The notes below the pieces were generated by a model. The model saw only the letters and a program-made list of their open reading frames with translations. It did not search any database and was not told where the DNA came from. The translations under genes were made by a program, and so were the position numbers. Of a DNA stretch of 58,810 bases, positions 31,161 to 46,332 are shown piece by piece (position 1 is the stretch's first letter; every line of letters starts with the position of its first letter). Source of the DNA: Nitrospirota bacterium (GTDB taxonomy: Bacteria; Nitrospirota; Thermodesulfovibrionia; Thermodesulfovibrionales; UBA9159); contig JAMCQB010000153.1 of assembly GCA_023382175.1 (NCBI GenBank), positions 1,713 to 60,522 of the forward strand, read 5' to 3'.

Positions 31161-31616
31161 TTAATAACTGATCAGGGCGTTCAGGAACTTCTCGTTCATC
31201 TGTCTGAGGTTTTTGCTCAGAACAAGAATAAGCCTCTTCATTATCTTTGATGCGAGGAGGAGGTCTTCATTCTCCATTCTCTCAAAATCCTCTTTCGGTA
31301 TGCACAGGACCACTGTATCTTCAAGGGAGACTGCATTCGCTTCGTGGATCCTGTGTTCGATGATCGAAAGCTCACCAAAGAAACTGCCCTTTGTCAGGAC
31401 TGCCAGTGTCTGTTTCCAGCCGTCAGGGGTGATCTTTGAGATCTCGACCTTTCCTGAATGTATGAGGAAGATGCCCTTTGTGTCTTCCTTTTCCCTGAAG
31501 ACATGCTCTCCCTTCTTGAAGGGGATTTCCTTAACCACGCCGGCCATTTTCTTAAGTTCCGAAGCATCAAGGTCCTCGAGAAGGATCTGTTCCTTCAGCA
31601 TTTCCAGGCTTACCAT
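31161..31616 (-). CDS. Stand-alone cyclic-nucleotide-binding domain protein (no HTH)
   Basis: GEHVFREK...SGKVEI...GSFFGELS...HEANA; ATG at 31616 after GGAGGTG; about 151 aa. Confidence 0.88.
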   Translation of the reverse strand: MVSLEMLKEQILLEDLDASELKKMAGVVKEIPFKKGEHVFREKEDTKGIFLIHSGKVEISKITPDGWKQTLAVLTKGSFFGELSIIEHRIHEANAVSLEDTVVLCIPKEDFERMENEDLLLASKIMKRLILVLSKNLRQMNEKFLNALISY

Positions 31617-31733
31617 GTCACCTCCGGGAGATATCTCTAAGTCTCTACTATATTTTAAAGAACGCAAATTTTCAAGGGGATTCTGCAAATCCCGGTTCAG
31701 GAAAAACGAAAGAAACGGACCGGTTCATCGGCT

Positions 31734-34436
31734 CTATAAAGCCTTTATCTTTACCGCGCAGACCTTGAGTTCAGGGATCTTGCAGACAGGGTCCGTGGCA
31801 GTGTTCGTAAGGACGTTGGCAGCAGCCTCCTTGAAATGGAAGGGGATGAATACCATGCCCCGCAAAGGCCTTTCCGTGATCTTTGCAGCGAGATCGATGC
31901 TTCCCCTTCTGGAGGAGACGGTTATCTTCTGCCCGTCGGCAATGTTAAGTCTTCGGGCATCTTCAGGATGTATTTCAACGTACGGCTGGGAGGCGATCGC
32001 CTCAATGGCAGAGGTCTTTCTGGTCATGGTGCCCGTATGATACTGGAATAACTGTCTTCCCGTGGAGAGCACGAAGGGATATTCATCATCCGGAAGTTCT
32101 GCAGAAGGCCTGTAGCTCACTGCGGTAAATCTCCCTTTTCCCCTGGGAAACCCTCCCTTGAAAAGGTATGGTGTCCCGGGATGTTCAGGGGTGGGGCAGG
32201 GCCACTGTATTCCGTGTTTCTCTATGCGACTATAGGTGATTCCTGCCACCGCAGGCCAGAGCCGGCCGATTTCCTTCATGATGTCTTCCAAGGAGTTATA
32301 TTTCATCTCATATCCGAATCTCTTGCTCAACTCAGCAATTATCCAGGAGTCCTCCCGGGCGTCCCCGGGAGGGTTGACCGCTTTCCTCACGCGCTGAACC
32401 CGCCGGTCGGTATTCGTAAAAGTACCATCCTTTTCCGCAAAGCAGGCCGCGGGCAGCACCACATCAGCGAGCTCCGCGGTTTCCGTAAGGAAAATATCCT
32501 GTACCACAAGGAACTCGAGGTTCTTCAAGGCCTTAATAGTATGGTGCATGTCAGGGTCGCTGAGCACAGGGTTCTCTCCCATGATATACATCGCCTTGAG
32601 CGTGCCGCTGATCGCAGAGTCAGTCATTTCCGTTGCGGTGAGACCGATCTTGCCCGAGAGTGAGACACCCCATTCCTTTTCGAACTTCTCCTTTGCCTGG
32701 GGCATATCGACCTTCTGATATCCGGGATATACATTCGGCGCACAGCCCATATCGCTTGCCCCCTGGACATTGTTCTGCCCCCTCAGGGGATTTACACCGG
32801 TACTTTCTTTCCCCAGATTCCCGGTCATCAGGGCAAGGTTTGCTATGGAGAACACATTGTCCGTTCCGTGGGTATGCTGCGTCATTCCCATGGTGTAATA
32901 AATTCCGGCGCGCTCCGCCTTTCCGTAAAGCATGGCTGCCTTGATTATCTTCTCCTTCGGAACACCGGTGATCTTTTCCCCCACTTCCGGTGTGAACTCA
33001 GCCAGGGAGGCCCTGAATTCTTCGAACCCCTCGGTATGGTTTTTTATGAACTCGTTATCCTCAAGGCTTTCCTTCAGTATCACATGCATGATGGCATTGA
33101 GGAGAGCCACATCAGTCCCCGGCCTCTGCTGAAGCCAGAGGTCAGCGAACCTCACGAGATTTATCCTTCTCGGGTCTGCCACAATGAGTTTCGCCCCTTT
33201 TCTGAAGGCCTTTTTCATCTTTAATCCGATGATGGGGTGGGTCTCGGTGGTATTCGAGCCTATCACGAAAATCAGGTCATTGTTTACTATCTCGGGCATG
33301 GAGTTCGTCATGGCTCCCGAGCCGAAAACCGTGGCCAGACCGGCCACCGTTGCGCTGTGTCAATACCGGGCGCAATGGTCGATGTTGTTTGTGCCGATAA
33401 CAGCCCTGACGAATTTCTGGAAGAGGTAGTTTTCCTCGTTGGTTGCCCTGGCTGAGGACAGCCCTGCGAAGGAATCGGGTCCGTGCTTGTCTCTGATACT
33501 CTTCAGCCTCTCCGCAATGTAATCCAGTGCCTCGTCCCATGAGGCTTCCCTGAATACCTCATTACGCGTAACGCGTGACGCGTCACGGGTTTTTAGAGTT
33601 ATCCTGATAAGGGGTTTCTTTAACCTATCGTGGCTGCTGATGAAATTGTACCCGAATCTTCCTTTCACGCATAACCATCCCTCATTAATGGTGTCCGCCT
33701 TTGAATCCACCCTGATCACCTCATTTCCATGAACGTGGAGGGTGAGGTTGCATCCGCAACCGCAATATCCACAGGTGGTGTCAACTTCCCTTACCTCCTT
33801 CTGGCGTCCCTTCTGTTTCCAGGACTTGCCGGTGAGGGCACCTGTGGGACAAACGGCAATGCACTGGCCGCAGAATTCGCAGTCAAGGTCTTTCTCATAG
33901 GGGGGACAGATCTTGGATTTAAATCCCCGGTAGGCAAAATCAATGGCTCCAACACCTTCGACCTCGTCGCAGACCTTTACGCACCTGCCGCAGAGGATGC
34001 ATTTTTCCATATCCCTTTCAATAAAGGGATTTCCGTCTCGTTTAGTATAGATTCTTCTTTCGCCCTCAAACCTGTTTTCCCTGATGCCGTAGAAATACGC
34101 AAGTTCCTGGAGGGTGCAGTCACCTGCCCTTTCGCATACCATACAGTCGTTGGGGTGGTCTGAAAGAATCAGCTCAAGAACTGTCTTCCTCAAGCTTTCG
34201 AGGTTGGGGCTGGTTGTGGTCACTTCCATTCCCTCACTCACGGGCGTGGTGCAGGAAGTTACCGGTCTCGGAATTCCTTTAATCTCTATGAGACAGAGTC
34301 TGCAACCCCCGAAGGGGGTAAGTTTGGGATGGTGGCAGAGGGTGGGAATGGAAATATGCAGTCTTTTTGCAGCGTCAAGAACCGTTATACCCTCAGGAAC
34401 GTTTACTGTCTTTCCGTCTATCGTGACCTTTGGCAT
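31734..34436 (-). CDS. fdhF: Selenocysteine-containing formate dehydrogenase alpha subunit (cytoplasmic, NuoG-like N-terminus)
   Basis: ORFs 33360-34469 and 31734-33347 are in the same frame, separated by TGA at 33362-33360, giving [27 protein letters not shown] is present, there is no Tat signal, and a SECIS follows the TGA. Confidence 0.93.
33327..33351 (-). other. Bacterial SECIS element
   Basis: UGA-CACAGCGC-AAC-G-GUGGCC-GGUCU-GGCCAC-G-GUU: stem-loop with an apical GGUCU, comparable in position to the E. coli fdhF SECIS. Confidence 0.85.
33561..33590. repeat. Heptamer repeat inserted in frame in the fdh gene ([10 protein letters not shown])
   Basis: a-ttacgcg-taacgcg-tgacgcg-tcacggg. 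Confidence 0.75.
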
Positions 34437-34438
34437 AG

Positions 34439-36235
34439 CTACTCCCTGCTTACCGATGCAAATTTGCATACATCAAAGCACGCACCGCACTTTATGCACT
34501 TTTCGGGATCTATTCTATGGGGCTTTTTCTTGTCGCCTGCGATCGCTCCCGCAGGACATGCCCGCCTGCAGGCACCGCAGCCTGTGCAGACCTCTTCAAT
34601 GATGCTGTAGGTTAAAAGGTCTTTACATACCTTTGCAGGACATTTCTTCTCTCTTATATGGGCTTCGTATTCTCCCCGGAAGTATTTCAGGGTGCTGAGA
34701 ATGGGATTGGGAGCTGTCTGTCCCAAGCCGCAGAGGGACGCTGCTTTGACATCGGCACAGAGTGTTTCGAGAAGTTCAATGTCCCCTTCTTTGCCGAGGC
34801 CTCTTGTGATCCGGTCGAGTATTTCGAGCAGCCTCTTTGTACCGATCCTGCAGGGTACACATTTCCCGCAGGATTCGGCCTGGGTGAATTCGAGGAAGAA
34901 TTTTGCGATATTGACCATGCAGTCAGTTTCGTCGAGGACGACCATTCCCCCGGAGCCTATGATGGATCCGACGCGGCCCAGTGATTCAAAATCTACGGGC
35001 GTATCAAGAAGTTCAGCGGGAATGCAGCCGCCTGAGGGTCCTCCGGTCTGGACGGCTTTGAACTGTTTGTTGCCGATAATACCGCCGCCGATATCGTAAA
35101 TGATCTCGCCGAGTCTAATGCCCATGGGAACTTCAATAAGTCCTGTGTTCTTCACCTTGCCGGTGAGAGCAAAGACCTTTGTCCCCTTGCTCTTCCCGGT
35201 GCCTATTGCGGAGTACCATGCAGCGCCGTTCCGGATAATGTAGGGGATGTTCGAGAGCGTCTCTACATTGTTGATGACCGTGGGCTTTCCCCAGAGACCT
35301 TTGTGAACAGGGAAGGGGGGCTTCGCTCTCGGCATGCCTCTCTCTCCTTCAATGGAGGCGATAAGGGCGGTCTCCTCACCGCACACAAAGGCTCCGGCCC
35401 CCAGCTTTATCCGCACATCGAAATGAAAGCCTGATCCGAAGAGATTGTTCCCGAGGTATCCCAGTTCATGAGCCTGTGCTATTGCAAGTTTCAGCCTGTC
35501 TACGGCTGCGGGATATTCCGCCCTGATGTAGACATATCCGAGACTGGCCCCGATGGCATACGCAGCGATCATCAGGCCTTCAACGACCGAGTGGGGATTA
35601 CCCTCGATGATGGATCTGTCCATAAATGCTCCCGGGTCGCCTTCATCGGCGTTGCAGACGATATACCTTACGTCTCCCGGCGCTTTCCGGCAGGCTTCCC
35701 ACTTCACTCCCGTGGGGAAGCCCGCTCCTCCCCTGCCGCGGATGGCCGATGCCTTTATCTCGTTGATCACATCCTCCGGCGTCATTGCAGAGACGATCTT
35801 CTTTATTCCGCTGTATCCGCCTACATTGATGTAGGCCTGGATGTCTTCAGGGTCTATGGTACCGCAATCCTTGAGGAGGATCTTCAGCTGCTTCGCATGG
35901 AAGGCGTAGTAGGAAGCGTCGATAAGCCACTCCTTTACAGGTTCCCCCTTTATAAGGTGTTCCTCGACAATCCTCTTTGCTATGTCGGGTTTTATCCCCT
36001 GATAGGTCACGCTCGTATCGCCGTCAACCACGTCAACGAGAACGTCCCTGGCGCAGAAGCCACGGCACCCGACCTTCTGGTAATGGCAGGTGAAGTCAAG
36101 TTCGATATCAACACAGAAATCGGTAATCGCCTTCTTGAAGGCTTCGATCACCTCCTTGCCCCCCGCGGCAAGACCGCCCGTGCCTATGCAGACCCTGACG
36201 ACTACCTTTTTCTTGTTCTCTTCACTTTGTTCCAC
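34439..36235 (-). CDS. NuoF/HydB-like flavin subunit (NAD-type, bifurcating signature)
   Basis: N-terminal thioredoxin-like 2Fe-2S region, GRGGAGFP, NADEGDPGAFMDR, CGEETAL, GGPSGG, ESCGKC.PCR, and two C-terminal 4Fe-4S motifs. Confidence 0.92.
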   Translation of the reverse strand: MEQSEENKKKVVVRVCIGTGGLAAGGKEVIEAFKKAITDFCVDIELDFTCHYQKVGCRGFCARDVLVDVVDGDTSVTYQGIKPDIAKRIVEEHLIKGEPVKEWLIDASYYAFHAKQLKILLKDCGTIDPEDIQAYINVGGYSGIKKIVSAMTPEDVINEIKASAIRGRGGAGFPTGVKWEACRKAPGDVRYIVCNADEGDPGAFMDRSIIEGNPHSVVEGLMIAAYAIGASLGYVYIRAEYPAAVDRLKLAIAQAHELGYLGNNLFGSGFHFDVRIKLGAGAFVCGEETALIASIEGERGMPRAKPPFPVHKGLWGKPTVINNVETLSNIPYIIRNGAAWYSAIGTGKSKGTKVFALTGKVKNTGLIEVPMGIRLGEIIYDIGGGIIGNKQFKAVQTGGPSGGCIPAELLDTPVDFESLGRVGSIIGSGGMVVLDETDCMVNIAKFFLEFTQAESCGKCVPCRIGTKRLLEILDRITRGLGKEGDIELLETLCADVKAASLCGLGQTAPNPILSTLKYFRGEYEAHIREKKCPAKVCKDLLTYSIIEEVCTGCGACRRACPAGAIAGDKKKPHRIDPEKCIKCGACFDVCKFASVSRE

Positions 36236-36698
36236 TGGATTCCTTTTTTTTCAATTCCTTGATGAGCTTTGAAGTGCTGTCCGCGGACATTTCGGCGTAG
36301 GCGCTGTTATTGACCAGGACCACGGGCGCGATACTGCAGGCCCCGACGCAACGTACGATCTCGAAGGTGAATTTCCCGTCTTCGGTTGTCTCCCCATCAG
36401 CGGCAAGGCCGAGGTCCCTTTGGATTCGTTCAGCGATCTTGCTCCCGCCCTTGACATGGCAGGCCGTCCCGCAACAGACGGAAACGATGTTCTTTCCCCT
36501 CGGTTTGAGATGGAATTGCGAGTAGAAAGTGACGACCCCGTAAAAACGGCTTGGCGGAATCTCAAGTTTTTCCGAAAAGTAATTGACCGCCTCTTCCGGG
36601 ATATATCCGAGGGCGTCCTGCGTCTCCTGAAGCAGGAATATGACATTGCCTTCCTTTTCCCTGTACTTTGTTATGATGCCGTCGAGAATGTCATTCAT
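36222..36698 (-). CDS. NuoE/HydC-like 2Fe-2S subunit
   Basis: VCCGTACHVKG...CVGAC..AP. Confidence 0.93.
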   Translation of the reverse strand: MNDILDGIITKYREKEGNVIFLLQETQDALGYIPEEAVNYFSEKLEIPPSRFYGVVTFYSQFHLKPRGKNIVSVCCGTACHVKGGSKIAERIQRDLGLAADGETTEDGKFTFEIVRCVGACSIAPVVLVNNSAYAEMSADSTSKLIKELKKKESSGTK

Positions 36699-36844: not shown

Positions 36845-38860
36845 CTATGCAAGCGCCTTTTCCGACTCTGTAAGCCAGAGGAGCCGTGAGCCATCAATAA
36901 CATGCATGTTCATTGACTGCATTATCTCATTCGTCGCTCCCTCAAGTTCTTCCCGGCGCGTAAAGGGATTGAAGGCAACCACCGGTTTCATTTTTGCGAG
37001 TTTCTTTGTTTCACTCTCTTTAGCCTCCTTCAGAGGCGTTCCCATTGCTTCTGAAAGGGCGACGAATATCTCCCGGTGGGATCTTGCCTCACCGGCGGGC
37101 TCGACAGCCTTGGCCAGCTGTTTCAGCCTTCCGAGATAGTCCACAATGGTGCCGTCCGCTTCGAGATATGCTGCTGCAGGCAGGACCACATCGGCCTGCT
37201 TTGCAATCTCTGTGAGATGAGAGGTCTGCACAATGAGAAAATCTGTGGAAGGTCTGCGACTCAGCGGAACTTCCCCTACTGCATAAAGAAGCTTCATGCC
37301 CTCCGTGGTCATCTCTCCGTAGGTCTTCCCTTCTTTCTTGATCCCCATGAGGATTATCCCTTTTGCATTGCTCTCCACAGGCATCGATACGGCAGCGCCT
37401 TTCAGGAGAGTCACGTTTGCGGCGGCCGGATAGAGGGCAGGGGACGACAGTATCACAGGGTTCTTGGCGCCAACAAAGAGCCCGGCCGCTGCCTCAACCA
37501 TCTCCGTAACCGGGGCGTCCGAGACTGCCGAAGCGAGTTCGCCGTCCGCCTTGATGCCTTTGTCCATGATTGCCTTCACCAGCGCCCTCAATGTCTCGGG
37601 CTCATCGCCCACAAGGTTAACCGCTGCGACTGATGAGATATTCGGCTCTGCAGAATTGATCGTGATCAGCTTTGCCCCTGCATTGACCCTTCTTCTGATG
37701 GTCGCATCGAGGGCAGGCAGCGCCCTTTTCCACTGGTTCGGATTGAGCCCCACAAGGACAAAGAGGTCTGCGGATTCGAGGTCAGCGCCCCCTGAGAGCA
37801 GCGTAGATTCATCGCCGTACAGGCTTGCGGTACTGTCAACGTTCTTCGTCTTTACCGCATCAGAGGCAAGCCTCTTCAGGGTCAGGGCGTCTTCATTAAG
37901 GATACCCGCCGGAGTGATGAATCCGGCATTCTCTCCCGCCTTCTTCATTTCCTTCGCAACGATTCCGAGGGCGTCTTCCCATGTTGTCTCCTGCAATTGA
38001 CCGTTTACGCGCTTCATGGGGACCCTGACCCGCGTGTCTGCCTCGATGCAGTCAAAGCCGAAGCGGCCATAAGCGCAGATGTATTTTTCAGGTGAACCGT
38101 CAGCGGCGCCCGCGTTTACTTTCACAAGCCTGCTGTCCTTTGTGCTCACGCTTATGTCGCAAGCGTTGCCGCAGAGGAGACAGACGGACTTTACCTTGTC
38201 ATAATCCCATTCCCTTCCCCTGCGCCACCTGTCGGCCTCGAGGAGGGCGTTCACCGGGCAGACGTCAACGCAACTGCCGCAGAATGTGCAGCCCGATTCA
38301 TGAAGGGGTTTGTCGTTTGCGGTAGTGACCTTCGAGCCCACGCCACGCCCCATGAATTCAAGGACATTCGTCCCCTGGTTTTTGCAGACCCTCACGCACC
38401 TTCCGCAGAGGACACAGTAGTCAGGATCCCGCTTGATGAACGGGTTCGCCTCGTCAATCGAGAAACCGAACTTCTTTCTCGTGAAATTCGACTCCTTGAT
38501 CTCGAAATCATAGGCATAATTCTGGAGGTTGCAGACACCGGCCTTCGTGCAGGTCATGCAGTCCAGGGGGTGCATCGAGAGGATGAGGTCTATCACGAAC
38601 TTCCTCGTCTCGAGGACCTTCTCCGTCTTTGTCCTGACCGCCATCCCTTCCTTCACCTTTGTTGTGCAGGCTATCATGGGGGCCTTCAGTCCCTCGACCT
38701 CGACCATGCACAACCGGCACGCGCCGATGCCTTTTAATCCCTTGAGGTAGCAGAGGTTCGGTATATGGATACCGCCAAGCTCTGCCGCATCGATAAGGTT
38801 CATCCCCTCGGGGGCATGGATCTCCTTGCCGTCTATCGTAAGCTTTATTGTATTTGCCAT
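36845..38860 (-). CDS. NuoG/HylA/SfrA-like Fe-S protein with a degenerate molybdopterin fold (no Mo ligand)
   Basis: 2Fe-2S (IPNLC...GACRLC...C), HPLDC..C.....C, two 4Fe-4S motifs, CLLCGNAC...C. NVDSTASLYG replaces the NIDHCAR(L/Y)(C/U)H ligand loop. Confidence 0.88.
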   Translation of the reverse strand: MANTIKLTIDGKEIHAPEGMNLIDAAELGGIHIPNLCYLKGLKGIGACRLCMVEVEGLKAPMIACTTKVKEGMAVRTKTEKVLETRKFVIDLILSMHPLDCMTCTKAGVCNLQNYAYDFEIKESNFTRKKFGFSIDEANPFIKRDPDYCVLCGRCVRVCKNQGTNVLEFMGRGVGSKVTTANDKPLHESGCTFCGSCVDVCPVNALLEADRWRRGREWDYDKVKSVCLLCGNACDISVSTKDSRLVKVNAGAADGSPEKYICAYGRFGFDCIEADTRVRVPMKRVNGQLQETTWEDALGIVAKEMKKAGENAGFITPAGILNEDALTLKRLASDAVKTKNVDSTASLYGDESTLLSGGADLESADLFVLVGLNPNQWKRALPALDATIRRRVNAGAKLITINSAEPNISSVAAVNLVGDEPETLRALVKAIMDKGIKADGELASAVSDAPVTEMVEAAAGLFVGAKNPVILSSPALYPAAANVTLLKGAAVSMPVESNAKGIILMGIKKEGKTYGEMTTEGMKLLYAVGEVPLSRRPSTDFLIVQTSHLTEIAKQADVVLPAAAYLEADGTIVDYLGRLKQLAKAVEPAGEARSHREIFVALSEAMGTPLKEAKESETKKLAKMKPVVAFNPFTRREELEGATNEIMQSMNMHVIDGSRLLWLTESEKALA

Positions 38861-38953: not shown

Positions 38954-39556
38954 TTATACGCCTACCGCCTTTTTCTTCTTTGCCTCAACTATTACGATCG
39001 CTTCCGTGGGACAGACCTTCCTGCATTCGTCGCATTTGACGCACTTCTTCTGCCGTATCTCGAAGGGCGGATAGCCGCTATGGAAGGGCTTTTTCTTCTG
39101 CCCGAAGATCGCATGGTACTTGCAGGCATCGAGGCAGATCCCGCAGTTGTCGCATTTGTCGGGGATTACCCGGTACTCGATGAAAGCAGGGCACTTCATC
39201 GATGGGCAGATGCCACCGATATGCTTGTCATATTCATCCGTGCTCATCCATTGGAGGACAAATTTCGCGGTATCTTTCCCCTTCTTGCACATCGAGGATT
39301 CGAGCATGTCCCCCGCGATCCTCTTCAGCGCCCACAGGTCTGCTTCCCTGCCCCTGCCGTTTACGATGGTCTCGAGCCTTATCCTCGCTTCGTAGCTTCC
39401 CATGGCGCAGGGGAAACACCTTCCGCACATGGGACCTGCAAGAAACTCCGTCATGTAGTAGAAGGCTTTCTGCACGGGGCAGCCCTTTCCCTCGGCAAGC
39501 GTTCTTATCTCTTCAACCTTTAGCTCTCTCTTCTCGGTTGCACTTTTTTCAGTCAT
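38954..39556 (-). CDS. NuoF Fe-S-binding-region protein with two 4Fe-4S clusters (no flavin domain)
   Basis: CPV...MCGRCFPC...SMCKKG...H..G.CP...C, CDNCGIC...C, CVKCDEC...CP. Confidence 0.85.
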   Translation of the reverse strand: MTEKSATEKRELKVEEIRTLAEGKGCPVQKAFYYMTEFLAGPMCGRCFPCAMGSYEARIRLETIVNGRGREADLWALKRIAGDMLESSMCKKGKDTAKFVLQWMSTDEYDKHIGGICPSMKCPAFIEYRVIPDKCDNCGICLDACKYHAIFGQKKKPFHSGYPPFEIRQKKCVKCDECRKVCPTEAIVIVEAKKKKAVGV

Positions 39557-39565
39557 GCCTTACCT

Positions 39566-42029
39566 CTAATAGATATCCTCTGCCATATAGATAACCTCGG
39601 GCAGCAGGTAGGAAACCAGGTCCCTGTAAGAGACCATGCCGATGATCTTCTCGTCTTCCATGACGGGGAGATGTCTGATCTTCCTCTCCGACATCACCGT
39701 GATCGCCACACTGATGTCCGTCGAGGAGTCAAGGGTTATAGGTTTGGGGGTCATGATGGTTGCCATCGTCTCTTCCTTGAAGTTGATGTTCTTCGCAAAA
39801 CAGTGCATGATATCCCTTTCAGTGAAGATTCCGGCCAGCTTCTCGTCGTCGTCAAGGACCAGGATGGAACCGACATTCTGGCCGTCCATGACGGTCACCG
39901 CATCGGCGACAATACAGGTTGTCTTGCAGGTGACCATCTTTGACGGTTTCGCTTTTAACAGATCCTTTAATGTCATTCTCGCTCTCCTTTCGAGTATCTC
40001 GATTTTTTCAGGAGGCACTCTGAACTGCTCCTCGAGTTTCACGATACTCTCTTTTCTTATTTTGACCGCACCGATGGGACACGCGTGGAAGCATGCCTTG
40101 CATTTTGTGCAGGAATCCTGATCGATAAAGAAGCGTTCCCTCGTCTCTTTCACCGCGCCATAGGCGCAGGCCTGTTTGCAGAGCCCGCAGCTGAAACACT
40201 CGGCAGAATTGATCACAAAGACGCCCGTGCCTCCGCAGATGTTCGCCCTGCAGTACTTTCCATAGATGTGCTCTTCGTATTCATCCCTGAAATACTTGAT
40301 CGTGCTGAGGACCGGGTTTGGGGCTGACTGGCCGAGACCGCAGAGAGACCCCTTCTGGATTTGTTTTCCCATCTCGATAAGCCTCGCGATATCGCCGTGT
40401 TTGCCTCTGCCGCTTGTGATATCTTCAAGTATCCGGAGCATCTGGTAAGTGCCGATCCTGCACGGGGGGCACTTCCCGCAGGATTCCGACTGGGTAAAGG
40501 AGAGGAAGTATTTTGCCACGTCCACCATGCAGGTGTCCTCGTCCATGACGACCATGCCCCCGGAGCCCATCATTGAGCCGACCTTCCAGAGGGAATCGAA
40601 GTCTGCCGGCAGATCGAGAAGGCTTGCCGGCATGCAGCCCCCCGAAGGTCCACCGGTCTGGACTGCCTTTATTTTCTTGTCATTCAGCACTCCGCCACCG
40701 ATGTCGAAGATGATCTCCCTGAGCGGCATACCCATCGGGACTTCCACAAGTCCGGTGTTCTTGACCTTGCCGGTCAGAGCAAAGACCTTTGTGCCTGGAG
40801 AGGTCTCGGTCCCGATACTTCTGAACCAGTCCGCTCCTTTTTCTATTATCGGAGGGACACAGGCATAAGTCTCTATGTTGTTCAGGTTGCTGGGATATCC
40901 CCACACGCCTCCGCCGGGCTCGGAGAGTCTTGGCGGGCGGGGCCTCGGGAATCCCCTTTCGCCCTCGATCGAAGCAACAAGGGCAGTGGACTCGCCGCAG
41001 ACGAATGCACCCGCACCCTCTCTCACGTCAAGGTGAAAACTGAAATCCGTTCCGAGGATGTTCCTGCCGAGAAGCCCCAGATCTTCGGCCTGACCTATGG
41101 CATGTTTCAGGTTTCTTACCGCAAGGGGATATTCATGCCTCACATAGACGAATCCGAAGGACGCCCCGATGGCATAGGCACAGAGGAGCATCCCTTCGAA
41201 GAGACTGTGGGGATCGCCTTCCATGATCGACCTGTCCATGAAGGCGCCGGGGTCGCCTTCGTCGCCGTTGGCAATGACGAATTTTATGTTCCCGGGTGCG
41301 CTCTTTGTATGCATCCATTTCTTTCCGGCGGGGAACCCTGCGCCGCCTCTTCCCCTGAGGTTTGCCTTATCGACCTCGTGCAGCACATCATCAGGAGTCA
41401 TGGAAGACAGTGCCTTTTCCAGAGCGGCATATCCCCCAACAGCGATATAGTGATGGATGTTGGTAGGGTCGATCTTATCATTATTCCTCAATGCAATCCT
41501 CACCTGCTTTTTGTAAAAGGGCAGATTGAGCATCTCCGGGATAGGATCGCTCAGGATGTCTTCCCGGTAAAGGGCTTCCCTGAACGGTGTGCCTGCGACA
41601 AAGGTAGAGCTTATGAGCCCTGATGCATGCTCGGGTTTCACTCGCTGATAGAAAATCTCCTGAGGCTCTGTCTTCCCGGTAAAGGGCTTCCCTGAACGGT
41701 GTGCCTGCGACAAAGGTAGAGCTTATGAGCCCTGATGCATGCTCGGGTTTCACTCGCTGATAGAAAATCTCCTGAGGCTCTGTCTTCATGATCGGACCCT
41801 TCTGGCACATGCCCTGGCACCCTGTCTTGATGATCTCGATTCCCAGTCCCTTTTTCCTGGCCTCGTCTTCAAGGGCGTGAATAACCTTGGACGAACCTGA
41901 AGCAGTGCATGCGGTGCCGCAGCAGACCCTTGCCCTTTCCCTGTCAGGCTGAAAGACCTCCGATGCAAGCCGTTCTCTCAACCTCCGTAAATCCTCTATG
42001 TTCTGTAACCTCTCCATCCGGAACTCCAT
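39566..42029 (-). pseudogene. NuoF/HydB-like flavin subunit with a C-terminal CBS pair, frameshifted by a 112-bp tandem duplication
   Basis: ORF 41481-42029 (N-terminal VCCGTAC...TGCQGMC) plus ORF 39566-41713 (GRGGAGFP, GDEGDPGAFM, CGESTAL, GGPSGG, 4Fe-4S, CBS motifs GIFTERD and IRHLPV). Deleting one repeat copy gives one 783-aa ORF. Confidence 0.85.
41557..41787. repeat. Exact 112-bp tandem duplication bounded by TGTCTTC microhomology
   Basis: 41557-41668 equals 41669-41780; TGTCTTC occurs at 41557, 41669 and 41781. Confidence 0.95.
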
Positions 42030-42030
42030 T

Positions 42031-42513
42031 CTATTCTTTCACCATTGTGACCATCTTGTTGATCTTCTCCTGATCGATCTCGCCCACAACCTCCTCATTC
42101 ACGGTGATTACCGGTGCGAGACCGCAGCAGCCGACGCACCCCACGGTTTCGAGGGTCATCGATCCATCAGGAGTCGTTTCCCCTTCCTTGACCCCGAATT
42201 CCTCTTCGAGATTCTGGAGCACCTTTGAAGCGCCTCTTACGTGACAGGCAGTTCCCACACAGACACAGACGATGTTTTTCCCTCTCGGCTTAAAATAGAA
42301 ATGCCTGTAGAACGAGGCGGTGCTGTATACATCAGAAAGAGGAATATCGAGATTCCTCGAAAGTTCCCTGAGTTCGTCTTCGGGAAGATAGTTATGTTCC
42401 TTCTGTATCTTCTGAAAGGCGTGGATGAGAAGTCCCCTCTTCTTTTGATCTTCGCTCATAACCTCACCGACGCCTCTGTAGAATTCCTCGACGTTCATCC
42501 TATCCACGGGCAT
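42031..42513 (-). CDS. NuoE/HydC-like 2Fe-2S subunit (second copy)
   Basis: VCVGTACHVRG...VGCVGCCGLAP; RBS GGAGG. Confidence 0.92.
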   Translation of the reverse strand: MPVDRMNVEEFYRGVGEVMSEDQKKRGLLIHAFQKIQKEHNYLPEDELRELSRNLDIPLSDVYSTASFYRHFYFKPRGKNIVCVCVGTACHVRGASKVLQNLEEEFGVKEGETTPDGSMTLETVGCVGCCGLAPVITVNEEVVGEIDQEKINKMVTMVKE

Positions 42514-43366: not shown

Positions 43367-45298
43367 TTATGCCCGCGAGTCCTTCAGTTCAAAGATTTTC
43401 ACTTCCCTTTCCTTGCCTTTCACTTTCGCGGATGCAAGTTCCTTTACCGCCAGATGCCCAAACAAGCCATTCTTTATGAGGGGTTCTATATATGCAAAAG
43501 TATTTTCTGTGATAAGGATCCTCGTACCGTATTGCCTTGTTAATTTCTCTACCCTGGCTGCAAGATTCACATGGTCTCCTATTACCGTATAATCCATCTT
43601 CTTCCCTGGTGCTCCGATATTCCCTATCAGAACTTCACCGCTATTGATCCCTATGCCGACATCAAGGACATCAGTACCTCTCTGCCTCCATATCTCCTGC
43701 AACTTTGTCAGTTTCTCTGACATGTCAAGGGCGCATCGTAAAGCGAGCTCGGCGTGATTTGGTTGCTCTATGGGTGCGCTCCAGAGCGCCATGATCTCAT
43801 CTCCCACAAATTTATCAAGGGTCCCGTCCCATTTGAATATGATATCTGTCATCTCGTGAAAGTATTCATTAAGGAGGGAGACGACTTCCTCTGGCTGTCT
43901 TTTTTCGGAAAGGGAAGTAAATTCGATGACGTCCGAGAAGAGCACGGTCACCGTCCTCCTTACGCCGGAAAGAGTGGCCTTTTCCGGATTTTCGACGAGC
44001 TCTTTCACGATCTTCGGGGATACATAGCTCGAAAACATCTGGCGTATCTCCTTTGCCTTCTTTTCTTCATGGACGAACCTTATGACCGTCAAAGTGACAA
44101 AAATGGTAAACATGTTCGTGCCCGGATAGAGGAGATTTGCCCAGAGATTATGGTATACGAGCAGATAGCAGCAGACAAAGATATAGAGGAGTATGAAACC
44201 GGTGGCAAGGAAGGCACTGGAAATAGCCTTTAATCTTGGAAGAGTTAATCCAAGAATAATCCCGGTGAAGATAATAGCGATCAACTCAATAACACCGGGG
44301 CTCTTTTTTATAAAATTGTTTAAGAGAATGTTATTTACGACATTCGCATTCTTCTCCACTCCCGGCATATTGCCGGAAAAGGGCGTCACCTTCTGGTCGT
44401 AGGTGGCAAGGGCAGATGTCCCGACGAGGACTATCTTGTCTTTTAAGACATCAGAGGGGACTCTGTCTTTGAGCACATCCGAGGCAGAGATATAGGGAAA
44501 ACTTCGCTCTTTTCCCCTGTAATTTATTACGGCCCTACCGTACAGATCGGTGGAGATAAACGCACTGCCAAGACCTATCCCGGAGCCGCCGTAGAGGATC
44601 ATGTCTTTCATAGGAATGCCCAGGGCGACTCTCGCGATCTGGAGAGCAAACTGCGGATAACAGTCTTCACCGTAAGAAAGAGAAAGAATCTCCCATCGCT
44701 GAGATCCATCCATATCAGGCAGGGTATAGACATGACCGAGCGCTGCGACTGTGGAGATTTCGGGCAAGGAGGGCTTAACCTTTTCCGCCTTAACCGCAAA
44801 GTCCTTCCACTTAATTCCTTTTTGGCTTCTTACCTCCATGAAGGCAGAGTCCCAGAGAAAATCAGGGACTTCCTTTGGAGAACCGGCGACTGTCCTGCCC
44901 TGAGGGACCTCAAAGGCTGTGGCCAGTACTACGTTGTCCGCCTTTTTTATCGCTTCTGCAAGTTTTTCGTCTTTCTCAGGACTCTCCCTTTCGGTGAACA
45001 TAACATCGATGCCTATAACCTTAGGTCCTGCAGCCGAGATCTTATTCACAAGCGCTGCCATAACATCCCTCCCCCACGGCCATCTGCCTATTTCCCCGAT
45101 GCTTTTGTCGTCGATGGCAACGACGATAATATCCTTTGCCGGAGGCTGCTCCTTTATAAGGTTCCTCAGCCGGAGCCTGAGATCATAGGTTTTGCTTTCC
45201 AGATGTTCACGGATTATCAGGGGATCTTTAAGCTGCAGAACAACAAAAAACAGTGTGGAAAGGAAGGGGATAAGATAAAGCCAGAGCCTCTTCTTCAT
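43367..45298 (-). CDS. CHASE2-domain membrane adenylate cyclase (class III)
   Basis: CHASE2 motifs IDDKSI..IGRWPW.R and PGVE; three TMs; catalytic VLFSDV, DKFVGD (Lys suggests ATP) and YTVIGD.VNLAAR.E. Confidence 0.93.
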   Translation of the reverse strand: MKKRLWLYLIPFLSTLFFVVLQLKDPLIIREHLESKTYDLRLRLRNLIKEQPPAKDIIVVAIDDKSIGEIGRWPWGRDVMAALVNKISAAGPKVIGIDVMFTERESPEKDEKLAEAIKKADNVVLATAFEVPQGRTVAGSPKEVPDFLWDSAFMEVRSQKGIKWKDFAVKAEKVKPSLPEISTVAALGHVYTLPDMDGSQRWEILSLSYGEDCYPQFALQIARVALGIPMKDMILYGGSGIGLGSAFISTDLYGRAVINYRGKERSFPYISASDVLKDRVPSDVLKDKIVLVGTSALATYDQKVTPFSGNMPGVEKNANVVNNILLNNFIKKSPGVIELIAIIFTGIILGLTLPRLKAISSAFLATGFILLYIFVCCYLLVYHNLWANLLYPGTNMFTIFVTLTVIRFVHEEKKAKEIRQMFSSYVSPKIVKELVENPEKATLSGVRRTVTVLFSDVIEFTSLSEKRQPEEVVSLLNEYFHEMTDIIFKWDGTLDKFVGDEIMALWSAPIEQPNHAELALRCALDMSEKLTKLQEIWRQRGTDVLDVGIGINSGEVLIGNIGAPGKKMDYTVIGDHVNLAARVEKLTRQYGTRILITENTFAYIEPLIKNGLFGHLAVKELASAKVKGKEREVKIFELKDSRA

Positions 45299-45429: not shown

Positions 45430-46332
45430 TTAATCTACGGGGGCCCCCCCAGGCCCATTATAAGGTGGTGGAGGCGGAGGATATATGTCCGGCGGAGGCG
45501 GTGGAGGTGGTGGAGGCGAAGGTGGTGGAGGCGAAGGCGGCGGTGGTGGAGGCGAAGGCGGTGGTGGTGGAGGTGGCGGTGGAGGAGGCGGTGGTGTTAC
45601 TGACTTTGGGGCTATGGGCGCTTGGTCACCGCGAGGCACGAAAACATCTTCAGCAGTACCCTCCAATTTGGCAGGACCAGGTCCCCAAATCCGTATTTCT
45701 TCGAAGTCGATATCTCTCAGGAGTTCCTCAATTTCCGCGTCAGAGGCCGGCGATGGCTGCGGAAGGGGCTCTCTCTCACATACCTCAATCTTGAACCGCG
45801 GTTTAAGCACCCGTAGTCCTTTGATATTGGTGTCAGGGCTGGTGACGAACACTTCCTTTTCAGTCTCGGTAGTTATCAGTTTGCTGCATATCTTTCCATC
45901 GATTTTTCTCACATGATAGAGAATGATAGTCCCCCTTGCTGCGGCCACCGCAGTGGGTGTCTGGACCTCAAATTGGGTTTTCCCGACAACCGACTTCATT
46001 TTGCCGTCGATGAGATTGAAGATGGACTTTCCGCCTTTGTCCTTGGCGTAAAGGAATTCTTTTATTACTACCTTCGATTTTTCTCCCATACTCAGGACAC
46101 TGTCGTCAGCAAAGAGCAGCTTTGCCCTGGAAGCCTCAAGGGTCGATACGGAATCCTTCAGGAGTATCCCGTCCTTTACCTTGGCATCTATAATCCTGTT
46201 ATCACGTTCGATGACTGTTTTACCTCGAAGGGCAACTACCGTGCCTACCTCATCCTTTGCCATGACAATGTCTGACAATCCCACAATGGAGAGGGTAATG
46301 ACAAGAAGTGTTATCAGTTTCAAGACTTTCAT
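45430..46332 (-). CDS. Secreted FecR-domain protein with a poly-proline C-terminal tail
   Basis: Signal peptide; FecR-like D...T...SRAKL.F.D.SVL.MGE.S, FEVQTPTAVAAARGT; Pro-rich tail. Confidence 0.85.
   Translation of the reverse strand: MKVLKLITLLVITLSIVGLSDIVMAKDEVGTVVALRGKTVIERDNRIIDAKVKDGILLKDSVSTLEASRAKLLFADDSVLSMGEKSKVVIKEFLYAKDKGGKSIFNLIDGKMKSVVGKTQFEVQTPTAVAAARGTIILYHVRKIDGKICSKLITTETEKEVFVTSPDTNIKGLRVLKPRFKIEVCEREPLPQPSPASDAEIEELLRDIDFEEIRIWGPGPAKLEGTAEDVFVPRGDQAPIAPKSVTPPPPPPPPPPPPPSPPPPPPSPPPPSPPPPPPPPPDIYPPPPPPYNGPGGAPVD
45464..45595 (-). repeat. Low-complexity poly-Pro coding tract
   Basis: GGTGGTGGAGGC(GAA) units on the + strand encode P-runs punctuated by Ser on the minus strand. 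Confidence 0.9.

Follow-up and report, generated by a model that had tools for sequence, protein, structure and literature searches.

A conserved CBS-domain fusion of a BfuB-type flavin/iron-sulfur subunit in Nitrospirota and its possible role in gating electron transfer

We analysed a stretch of 58,810 nucleotides (the window) of contig JAMCQB010000153.1 from the metagenome-assembled genome (MAG) GCA_023382175.1 of a Nitrospirota bacterium and show that it carries a real and conserved gene, bfuB-CBS, in which a BfuB-type flavin and iron-sulfur (FeS) subunit is extended at its C-terminus by a pair of CBS domains. The best explanation of the data as a whole, which we hold with slightly better than even confidence, is a conserved BfuB-CBS within a Bfu-like complex, in which the CBS pair would bind an adenosine-containing ligand and gate the low-potential branch of electron transfer. 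This reading draws on the domain architecture, its conservation, the synteny, the CBS fold, the conserved residues of ribose- and phosphate-binding type and the position of the CBS pair next to the ferredoxin-docking domain. The gene is composed of the following parts, residue numbers referring to its open reading frame (ORF) of 715 amino acids unless stated otherwise:

39566..42029, reverse strand: bfuB-CBS gene, 783 amino acids in its natural form, in the assembly two ORFs (41481-42029 and 39566-41713)
41721..41936, reverse strand: thioredoxin-like [2Fe-2S] domain at the BfuB N-terminus (PF01257, E 4.9e-07, residues 32-103 of ORF 41481-42029)
40853..41374, reverse strand: Complex1_51K domain, binding flavin mononucleotide (FMN) and NAD(H) (PF01512, E 2.5e-39, residues 114-287)
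Residues 310-359 of the 715-residue ORF, reverse strand: SLBB domain (PF10531, Pfam)
40268..40522, reverse strand: NADH_4Fe-4S domain with N3-type cluster (PF10589, E 2.3e-33, residues 398-482)
40046..40216, reverse strand: ferredoxin-like domain with two [4Fe-4S] motifs, corresponding to the B3/B4-type clusters of Bfu enzymes (Fer4/4Fe-4S dicluster families, residues 500-556)
39977..40045, reverse strand: helical linker from the ferredoxin-like domain to the CBS pair (helices 76-85 and 89-99 of a 236-residue model, pLDDT 64-87)
39569..39976, reverse strand: Bateman module with CBS1 (GIFTERD), CBS2 (RHLPV ... YRD) and a conserved C-terminal tail (LPE..YMAE..Y) (PF00571 twice; approximate span from residue arithmetic)
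41557-41668 and 41669-41780, no strand assigned: perfect 112-nucleotide tandem duplication in two copies (100% identity, spacing 112), shifting the frame

A preliminary description, made from the sequence alone, had reported a Bateman module behind two 4Fe-4S motifs at the C-terminus of a NuoF/HydB subunit. The ORF 39566..41713 on the reverse strand, of 715 amino acids, contains both peptides quoted there, and the module is confirmed by Pfam (PF00571, E 1.7e-23, 83.2 bits against a cut-off of 24, in two stretches with the best at residues 652-704), by the fold of a structural model and by conservation in relatives. The span given at that time, 39566-40010, encloses the computed CBS module at about 39569-39976; the fusion was thus correctly recognised, and the extent of the gene has to be revised since the N-terminal thioredoxin-like 2Fe-2S part lies in the separate ORF 41481..42029. 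The Cys motifs of this N-terminal domain are present, the Complex1_51K domain contains the GGAGFP and DEGDPG motifs, and all eight Cys residues (8/8) of the ferredoxin-like domain are invariant in an alignment of 32 sequences having 46-91% identity to the window's own. The linker, about 25 to 45 residues long according to the start chosen for the CBS module, is partly conserved in the same alignment (E83, F85, P88, R97, R98).

The fusion recurs widely among relatives. A protein search with residues 480-715 returned 576 matches at E<=1e-3, and among the 120 matches listed all carry PF01512 together with PF00571, mostly in proteins of 775-793 amino acids, with source names including 'NuoF/CBS domain-containing protein/(2Fe-2S) ferredoxin' and 'CBS domain-containing protein [Nitrospirae bacterium]'. 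Scanning one genome per species, the best 80 of 560 related stretches gave 79 loci, and all 79 align over the ferredoxin-like domain, the linker and the CBS pair from residue 1 to residue 231-236, nearly all being titled as Nitrospirae, Nitrospirota, Thermodesulfovibrionales or Thermodesulfovibrio MAGs. Within the phylum a NuoF-like match is present in 386 of 401 genomes; among the 150 matches listed, which are followed by 607 further ones, 43 extend to at least residue 712, and these occur in at least 42 of the 401 genomes including the window's own. The CBS-bearing orthologs in 42 genomes form open frames of 771-880 amino acids that are stop-free in all but two genomes, 40 of the 42 genomes belonging to the class of the window and two to another family of the phylum. 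As a separate observation, a NuoF-like match at E<=1e-30 is missing in 13 of 14 genomes of one small-genome genus (family f6, genus g10; 1.5-2.0 Mb, mostly 99-100% complete), every other family of the same order having one.

These data leave practically no room for the view that the fusion is an artefact of this MAG, produced by the loss of a stop codon, by a chimeric join or by faulty assembly. Such an origin could be suspected from the state of the source genome (171 contigs, 86.8% complete) and from an assembly-type defect in the same gene, the perfect tandem duplication located 1.6 kb upstream, whereas the same architecture is found in hundreds of independent assemblies with junction and linker conserved and with open frames in the 42 genomes mentioned above. 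A lost stop or mis-join as origin of the fusion is ruled out by this conserved architecture, and the preliminary description, which had made its claim depend on relatives sharing the fusion, is not refuted.

The duplication does affect how the gene appears in this assembly. As it shifts the frame, bfuB-CBS is split into two overlapping ORFs, of which the upstream one (41481..42029) repeats about 40 residues of the 715-residue ORF. We compared Logan contigs over 41300-42100, and the contigs from all four public metagenome runs (4/4, from four studies) join 41556 to 41669, omitting exactly 112 nucleotides; they show 0-2 other differences and the duplicated form is present in none of them, these contigs being of a kind that drops rare variants and one of the four runs possibly being the source sample. 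The single-copy form comprises 2352 nucleotides and encodes 783 amino acids without an internal stop, and it aligns to the ortholog in L009 (L, G, C and P numbers are our handles for loci, genomes, contigs and proteins) without gaps at 89.6% identity over 780 amino acids. The probable origin of the duplication is an error of assembly or a private variant. Pseudogene status was rejected because the duplication is not seen in the contigs of the four runs and thus probably is an assembly artefact; annotation of this MAG should list bfuB-CBS as an intact gene, with no pseudogene label.

The gene stands in a four-gene module together with the following neighbours:

42031..42513, reverse strand: BfuC, a NuoE-like [2Fe-2S] subunit (PF01257, E 2.1e-45), immediately upstream of bfuB-CBS
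38954..39556, reverse strand: p200, a 200-residue FeS protein that combines an NADH_4Fe-4S-like domain with two 4Fe-4S motifs, the next gene after bfuB-CBS
36845..38860, reverse strand: BfuA, NuoG-like, 671 amino acids (Fer2_4/Fer2, NADH-G_4Fe-4S_3, Fer4, Molybdop_Fe4S4, Molybdopterin)

The order NuoE-like, NuoF-CBS, p200 and NuoG-like is kept in 29 of 29 short and 18 of 18 extended loci. The p200 protein is similar to the last third of BfuB and has no FMN domain; its identity to query residues 394-553 is 32%. The BfuA-like protein contains a 2Fe-2S cluster, several 4Fe-4S clusters and a molybdopterin-like domain without the catalytic Cys or selenocysteine (Sec); Pfam gives no match of Molydop_binding (PF01568) in its 671 residues and there is no Cys at the position of the formate dehydrogenase active site. 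The NuoG model reaches 348 bits on this protein, below its cut-off of 470.

We take the InterPro entries by which the Bfu family is defined to be equivalent to the Pfam families found here, i.e. PF01512, PF10531, PF10589 and Fer4 in BfuB, PF01257 in BfuC, and Fer2_4/Fer2 together with Fer4 in BfuA, so that all three proteins show the domains of the family. According to Schut et al. 2022 (PMC9304861), the definition demands four InterPro domains in BfuB (IPR011538, IPR019554, IPR019575, IPR017896), one in BfuC (IPR002023) and two in BfuA, namely at least 2Fe-2S and 4Fe-4S ferredoxin-type domains. An identity as respiratory NuoF was rejected since the NCBIfam NuoF scores stay below the cut-offs: TIGR01959 (nuoF_fam, the respiratory NuoF equivalog) reaches 459.7 bits against 558.65 over residues 79-483, and NF008436 365.5 bits against 749. 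HydB of an [FeFe]-hydrogenase HydABC was likewise rejected, as the partner large subunit has a molybdopterin-like and not an H-cluster domain; of that subunit FeFe_hydrog_A6 matches residues 5-270 only, the FeS part at the N-terminus, with 224.7 bits where 765 are required. Nor does the module correspond to an NAD-dependent or Bfu-type formate dehydrogenase, the large subunit being devoid of catalytic Cys/Sec and of the Molydop_binding domain. Because the Bfu domains are present, the NuoF models score below cut-off and no H-cluster subunit exists, BfuB-type subunit is the best name. Of the earlier label 'NuoF/HydB subunit', the assignment to this type of flavin/FeS subunit was right and the two names were not, and the flavin-based complex proposed at that time is, judged by its domains, of the Bfu (HydABC-like) type.

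Jointly with the CBS mechanism, and at the same confidence of just above even, we propose a soluble four-subunit Bfu/HydABC-like complex of Thermodesulfovibrionia-type Nitrospirota, predicted to consist of BfuC, BfuB-CBS, p200 and a BfuA without catalytic site. Compared to BfuABC (PMC9304861; structures of Tsi NfnABC, PMC12018979), the HydB/NfnB-type subunit shares the thioredoxin-like 2Fe-2S, FMN/NAD(H), SLBB, NADH_4Fe-4S and two-[4Fe-4S] ferredoxin-like domains, and the neighbours are alike as well, BfuC being NuoE-like and BfuA having clusters of both the 2Fe-2S and the 4Fe-4S type. In contrast to BfuABC, the clade described here, known from its sequences, adds about 160 residues of linker and CBS pair, the p200 subunit and a dead molybdopterin-like domain in BfuA. 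With NuoF/Nqo1 of respiratory complex I, BfuB-CBS has the FMN/NADH domain and the N3-type cluster in common, whereas the N-terminal 2Fe-2S, the C-terminal 2x4Fe-4S and the CBS parts are extra; the four-gene module itself comprises NuoE-, NuoF- and NuoG-like genes and p200 only, a statement that concerns the module and not a scan of the window for membrane Nuo genes.

The CBS pair is modelled with the beta-alpha-beta-beta-alpha fold twice over and superposes on solved CBS pairs, an agreement well above chance. For the last 236 residues we computed an AlphaFold2 model from the alignment of 32 orthologs (mean pLDDT 79.3, pTM 0.56); its pLDDT is 87-93 across the CBS part. Foldseek retrieved 3fhm_A (E 1.7e-12) and 2rc3_A (TM 0.91, rmsd 1.5 Å), and VIA-align ranked 2rc3_A (Z 18.5, rmsd 1.5 Å over 126 residues), 4fry_B (Z 18.3) and 3fhm_B (Z 17.7). 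In agreement, phmmer found 2rc3 and 4fry at E 6e-15 to 6.8e-16 and 3fhm at 1.6e-12, with 26-33% identity. These best matches in sequence and fold, NE2398 (2rc3), Atu1752 (3fhm) and the Burkholderia protein 4fry, are stand-alone CBS pairs, the motifs TERD and RHLPV being common with 4fry; in contrast to BfuB-CBS, they are single-domain proteins whose function is not known and they have neither the LPE..YMAE..Y tail nor an FeS host. The CBS chains of PDB entries 9znf, 9zng and 9zni were considered as parts of redox complexes and rejected, as they are the ribosome-associated SriC/SriD proteins of Methanosarcina.

Within the 32-sequence alignment T152, E153 and D155 of GIFTERD, R201, H202 and P204 of RHLPV, R218 of YRD and L225, P226 and E227 of the tail are invariant, and D219 of YRD is kept in at least 90% of the sequences. 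We take D155 and D219 to be the equivalents of the ribose-binding Asp of CBS sites. This Asp belongs to the GhhT/SxxD motif, and in AMPK the CBS2 site, in which it is replaced by Arg, does not bind nucleotides, NADH and NADPH being bound at CBS3 (PMC5535039). Both CBS sites of BfuB-CBS therefore seem able to accept a ligand that contains adenosine; from the sequence, AMP/ADP/ATP, NAD(P)H, S-adenosylmethionine (SAM) and cyclic di-AMP (c-di-AMP) are indistinguishable. Precedents for adenylate inhibition or activation exist among CBS enzymes (PMC11172384, PMC5535039); in CBS-pyrophosphatase, AMP/ADP act as inhibitors and ATP as activator (PMC11172384). As in other CBS-regulated enzymes, such as CBS-pyrophosphatase, IMPDH, AMPK gamma and cystathionine beta-synthase, the Bateman module is fused to, or associates with, a catalytic protein and keeps the ribose-binding Asp motif; in contrast to these, the host here is a multi-cluster flavin/FeS electron-transfer subunit with the module placed C-terminally.

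Among the possible ligands, NADH/NAD+ or NADPH deserves attention. A CBS pair reporting the redox state of the enzyme's own substrate pool, and tuning bifurcation or confurcation in response, appears unlikely to us. It would fit that the host subunit itself uses NAD(H), that the closest solved relatives are the small stand-alone pairs 2rc3, 3fhm and 4fry, and that CBS3 of AMPK accepts both reduced cofactors. Some of the three solved pairs were presumably crystallised with NAD(H) or AMP, although a literature search on their ligands returned nothing; ligands of this kind come from structural-genomics entries, with no shown physiological role, and the sequence does not separate NAD(H) from AMP or ATP. 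Very unlikely is c-di-AMP or SAM as the ligand, by which the complex would be coupled to a second messenger or would respond to the status of methyl groups. The fold matches do include the c-di-AMP receptor DarB (Z 14.7) and the SAM/methylthioadenosine-bound MJ0100 (Z 15.9), both scoring below the generic stand-alone CBS pairs, however; a DAC-domain c-di-AMP cyclase is encoded in five of five genomes tested, this one included, although DAC is widespread, occurring also in 11 of 14 control genomes, and the Wood-Ljungdahl context of the module involves methyl transfer.

Adenylates as the most likely ligand lead to a model for how the CBS pair could act. In solved Bfu enzymes the C-terminal ferredoxin-like domain carries the low-potential clusters B3 and B4 and forms, with the C-terminal domain of BfuC, a ferredoxin-docking cleft; 12.8 Å separate this docking site from B3 and B4, and it becomes open once NADH has induced conformational changes. 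The CBS pair is attached directly behind this ferredoxin-like domain via the helical linker. We propose that the CBS pair would bind an adenosine-containing metabolite, most likely AMP/ADP/ATP, and would, via the linker and the conserved C-terminal tail, change where the ferredoxin-like domain, or p200 docked there, is placed or how freely it moves, by which the output of the low-potential branch would become dependent on the energy or redox state of the cell, the direction of the effect being a matter of inference. The energy-charge gating put forward in the preliminary description is thus in keeping with the conserved Asp residues and stays a conjecture. More tentatively, at clearly less than even confidence, this could be the first Bfu-type (flavobicluster) bifurcating complex with built-in allosteric control, in which adenylates or NAD(P)H would reposition the B3/B4 domain or occlude the ferredoxin/p200 cleft, so that the supply of low-potential electrons to carbon monoxide dehydrogenase/acetyl-CoA synthase (CODH/ACS) or formate dehydrogenase (FDH) of the Wood-Ljungdahl pathway would be switched on the energy or redox state of the cell.

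The C-terminus of BfuB varies considerably in this clade. Orthologs of about 630 amino acids without CBS domains stand in the same four-gene order in 13 loci, and forms of 729-748 amino acids with two additional 4Fe-4S motifs were found in four cases, among them L002. Paralogs of about 900-920 amino acids (L144-L147; genomes G306, G235, G348, G229) have an extra Fer4 and a p200-like module fused at the C-terminus and no separate p200 gene in the four loci; since such fused forms exist, p200 is expected, by the Rosetta-stone argument, to dock at the BfuB C-terminus. These variants mark the BfuB C-terminus, as judged from the sequences, as a hot spot of domain accretion in the clade. In a natural split (L155, G278:C71; 1498-1920 and 1936-3420, reverse strand), bfuB ends just past Fer4 and is followed by a separate CBS gene of 140 amino acids (P0142) and then by p200; the spacer of 15 nucleotides contains a purine-rich stretch, the conserved M-T-L-K-D segment forms the start of the CBS protein, and there is no helical linker. 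Because it is encoded as a separate gene in G278, the CBS pair with its tail is an autonomous module of the complex, and two more stand-alone CBS forms of 135-136 amino acids have a similar tail. As a further observation, L053 (G199:C36) has three tandem BfuB paralogs between the NuoE-like gene and p200, two of which (782 and 743 amino acids) carry CBS pairs.

The same variants bear on the possibility that the CBS pair is a ligand-free structural module, serving either BfuB-BfuB dimerisation or as docking platform for p200, CODH/ACS or FDH, which we regard as distinctly unlikely. CBS pairs commonly dimerise, the tail is strongly conserved with an invariant LPE and is kept in the stand-alone forms of 135-140 amino acids, suggesting a protein-protein contact, and the BfuB C-terminus is a place at which electron-transfer modules accrete. 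Against a purely structural part, the 32 sequences keep both ribose-binding Asp residues together with the RH pair, which such a part would not require, and the complex also exists without the CBS module.

In a quick maximum-likelihood tree of the core, computed from 63 rows and 496 columns, forms with and without CBS domains are intermingled; the tree requires six label changes, three of them forced by well-supported branches. In an approximately unbiased (AU) test, which left out three long rows and in which the group was named after the tree had been seen, a tree grouping all 36 CBS rows was not rejected (delta lnL 35.1, p 0.167). The trees are compatible with a single as well as with multiple origins of the CBS-bearing forms, and with different numbers of CBS gains and losses.

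The module is genomically tied to enzymes of the Wood-Ljungdahl pathway, i.e. to CODH/ACS in most relatives and to a Sec-FDH and formate-tetrahydrofolate (THF) ligase in the window. CODH is found within the 20-kb stretch in 14 of 18 extended loci, mostly as ACS followed by CODH directly upstream of the NuoE-like gene, and five of these 14 loci also contain NfnAB-like genes. There is no CODH in the window itself; in this genome, CODH precedes a CBS-less paralog, L002 (G000:C81, 785-3471), in which it is followed by a NuoE-like gene and a BfuB of 733 amino acids with two extra 4Fe-4S motifs replacing the CBS pair. A separate pair of p200 and NuoG-like genes of the same genome is on contig C4 (L006). 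In the Codh-Bfu and Fdh-Bfu clusters of Schut et al. 2022, bfu genes likewise adjoin CODH, as in the 14 of 18 loci of relatives, or FDH, as in the window and in genome G175. In that study (PMC9304861), Codh-Bfu was found in Firmicutes only and with its CODH genes between bfuB and bfuA, whereas here ACS-CODH mostly precedes bfuC, the lineage is Nitrospirota and the FDH in the window has its own second NuoE/NuoF pair.

Downstream of the module, the window continues with this second NuoE/NuoF pair, the FDH, a cyclic-nucleotide (cNMP)-binding protein, formate-THF ligase and a radical SAM protein, an arrangement matched among the 18 extended loci by G175 only:

36222-36698 and 34439-36235: FDH-associated NuoE/NuoF-like pair, upstream of FdhA
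31734-34469, reverse strand: formate dehydrogenase alpha (FdhA), with an in-frame TGA at 33360-33362 at the active-site motif ...HCARYUH...

The in-frame TGA suggests FdhA to be a selenocysteine enzyme, and FdhA has both the catalytic residue and the Molydop_binding domain in addition to its own NuoE/NuoF-like pair. Upstream of the operon lies a CHASE2-domain adenylate/guanylate cyclase (43367-45298, reverse strand) and downstream the cNMP-binding protein (31161-31688, reverse strand), both being common to the close relative G175; cyclic nucleotides may control the region of FDH and formate-THF ligase. A FecR-domain protein (45430-46332, reverse strand) has a long proline tract near its C-terminus, in which the runs of P are interrupted by single S residues.

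Several points weigh against an adenosine-ligand gate on a bifurcating Bfu-like complex. CBS pairs are known to bind many ligands or none, and the structural model, with a pTM of 0.56, is uninformative on the placement of the CBS pair relative to the rest of the protein. The CBS-less orthologs in the same synteny indicate that the CBS module is dispensable for the core function. Electron bifurcation by the complex is assumed from the domain content, and BfuA has no catalytic site from which a third substrate could be read. Adjacency to CODH or FDH is no proof of one complex, a caveat that Schut et al. raise as well (PMC9304861). The family, as it is seen in the databases, is moreover narrow: when 1.84 billion representatives of clusters at 50% identity were searched with a profile, the best 150 matches included one full-length representative (779 amino acids) and fragments, the remaining top matches covering the CBS part alone. 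No NuoF-CBS fusion from outside Nitrospirota surfaced among these best 150 matches, in a ranking that would place distant fusions under multi-CBS proteins, and a protein-cluster search retrieved its own Nitrospirota cluster and plain NuoF-like clusters alone, with no lead to a CBS fusion in other phyla. The best profile matches to the CBS part also include three giant proteins of 2354-3237 amino acids (P0121, P0122, P0130) with about ten CBS stretches each.

Databases already annotate the domains of the fusion proteins. In line with the preliminary description, for which no characterised HydB/NuoF with such a fusion was known, our literature search yielded no account of a NuoF-, HydB- or BfuB-type subunit carrying a CBS domain, and no report of nucleotide-dependent or other allosteric regulation of Bfu/HydABC-type enzymes. 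The word 'CBS' is absent from the Bfu papers checked for it; its occurrence in the Sporomusa Nfn paper (PMC7483475) was discarded as a strain name.

The finding will be of interest mainly for specialists of electron bifurcation. Enzymes of the Bfu/HydABC type hold a central place in how anaerobes manage their energy, and they work by means of large movements of domains about the BfuB ferredoxin-like domain; a conserved sensor domain placed at this mobile, ferredoxin-docking domain would offer a natural handle on the gating of the low-potential branch, for which the natural CBS-less, separate-CBS and p200-fused variants represent matched controls. Our data point to a CODH/ACS-linked Bfu module in Thermodesulfovibrionia, widespread subsurface sulfate reducers, that is not described in the family survey of 2022, and the CBS module may constitute a built-in regulatory switch on this enzyme family.

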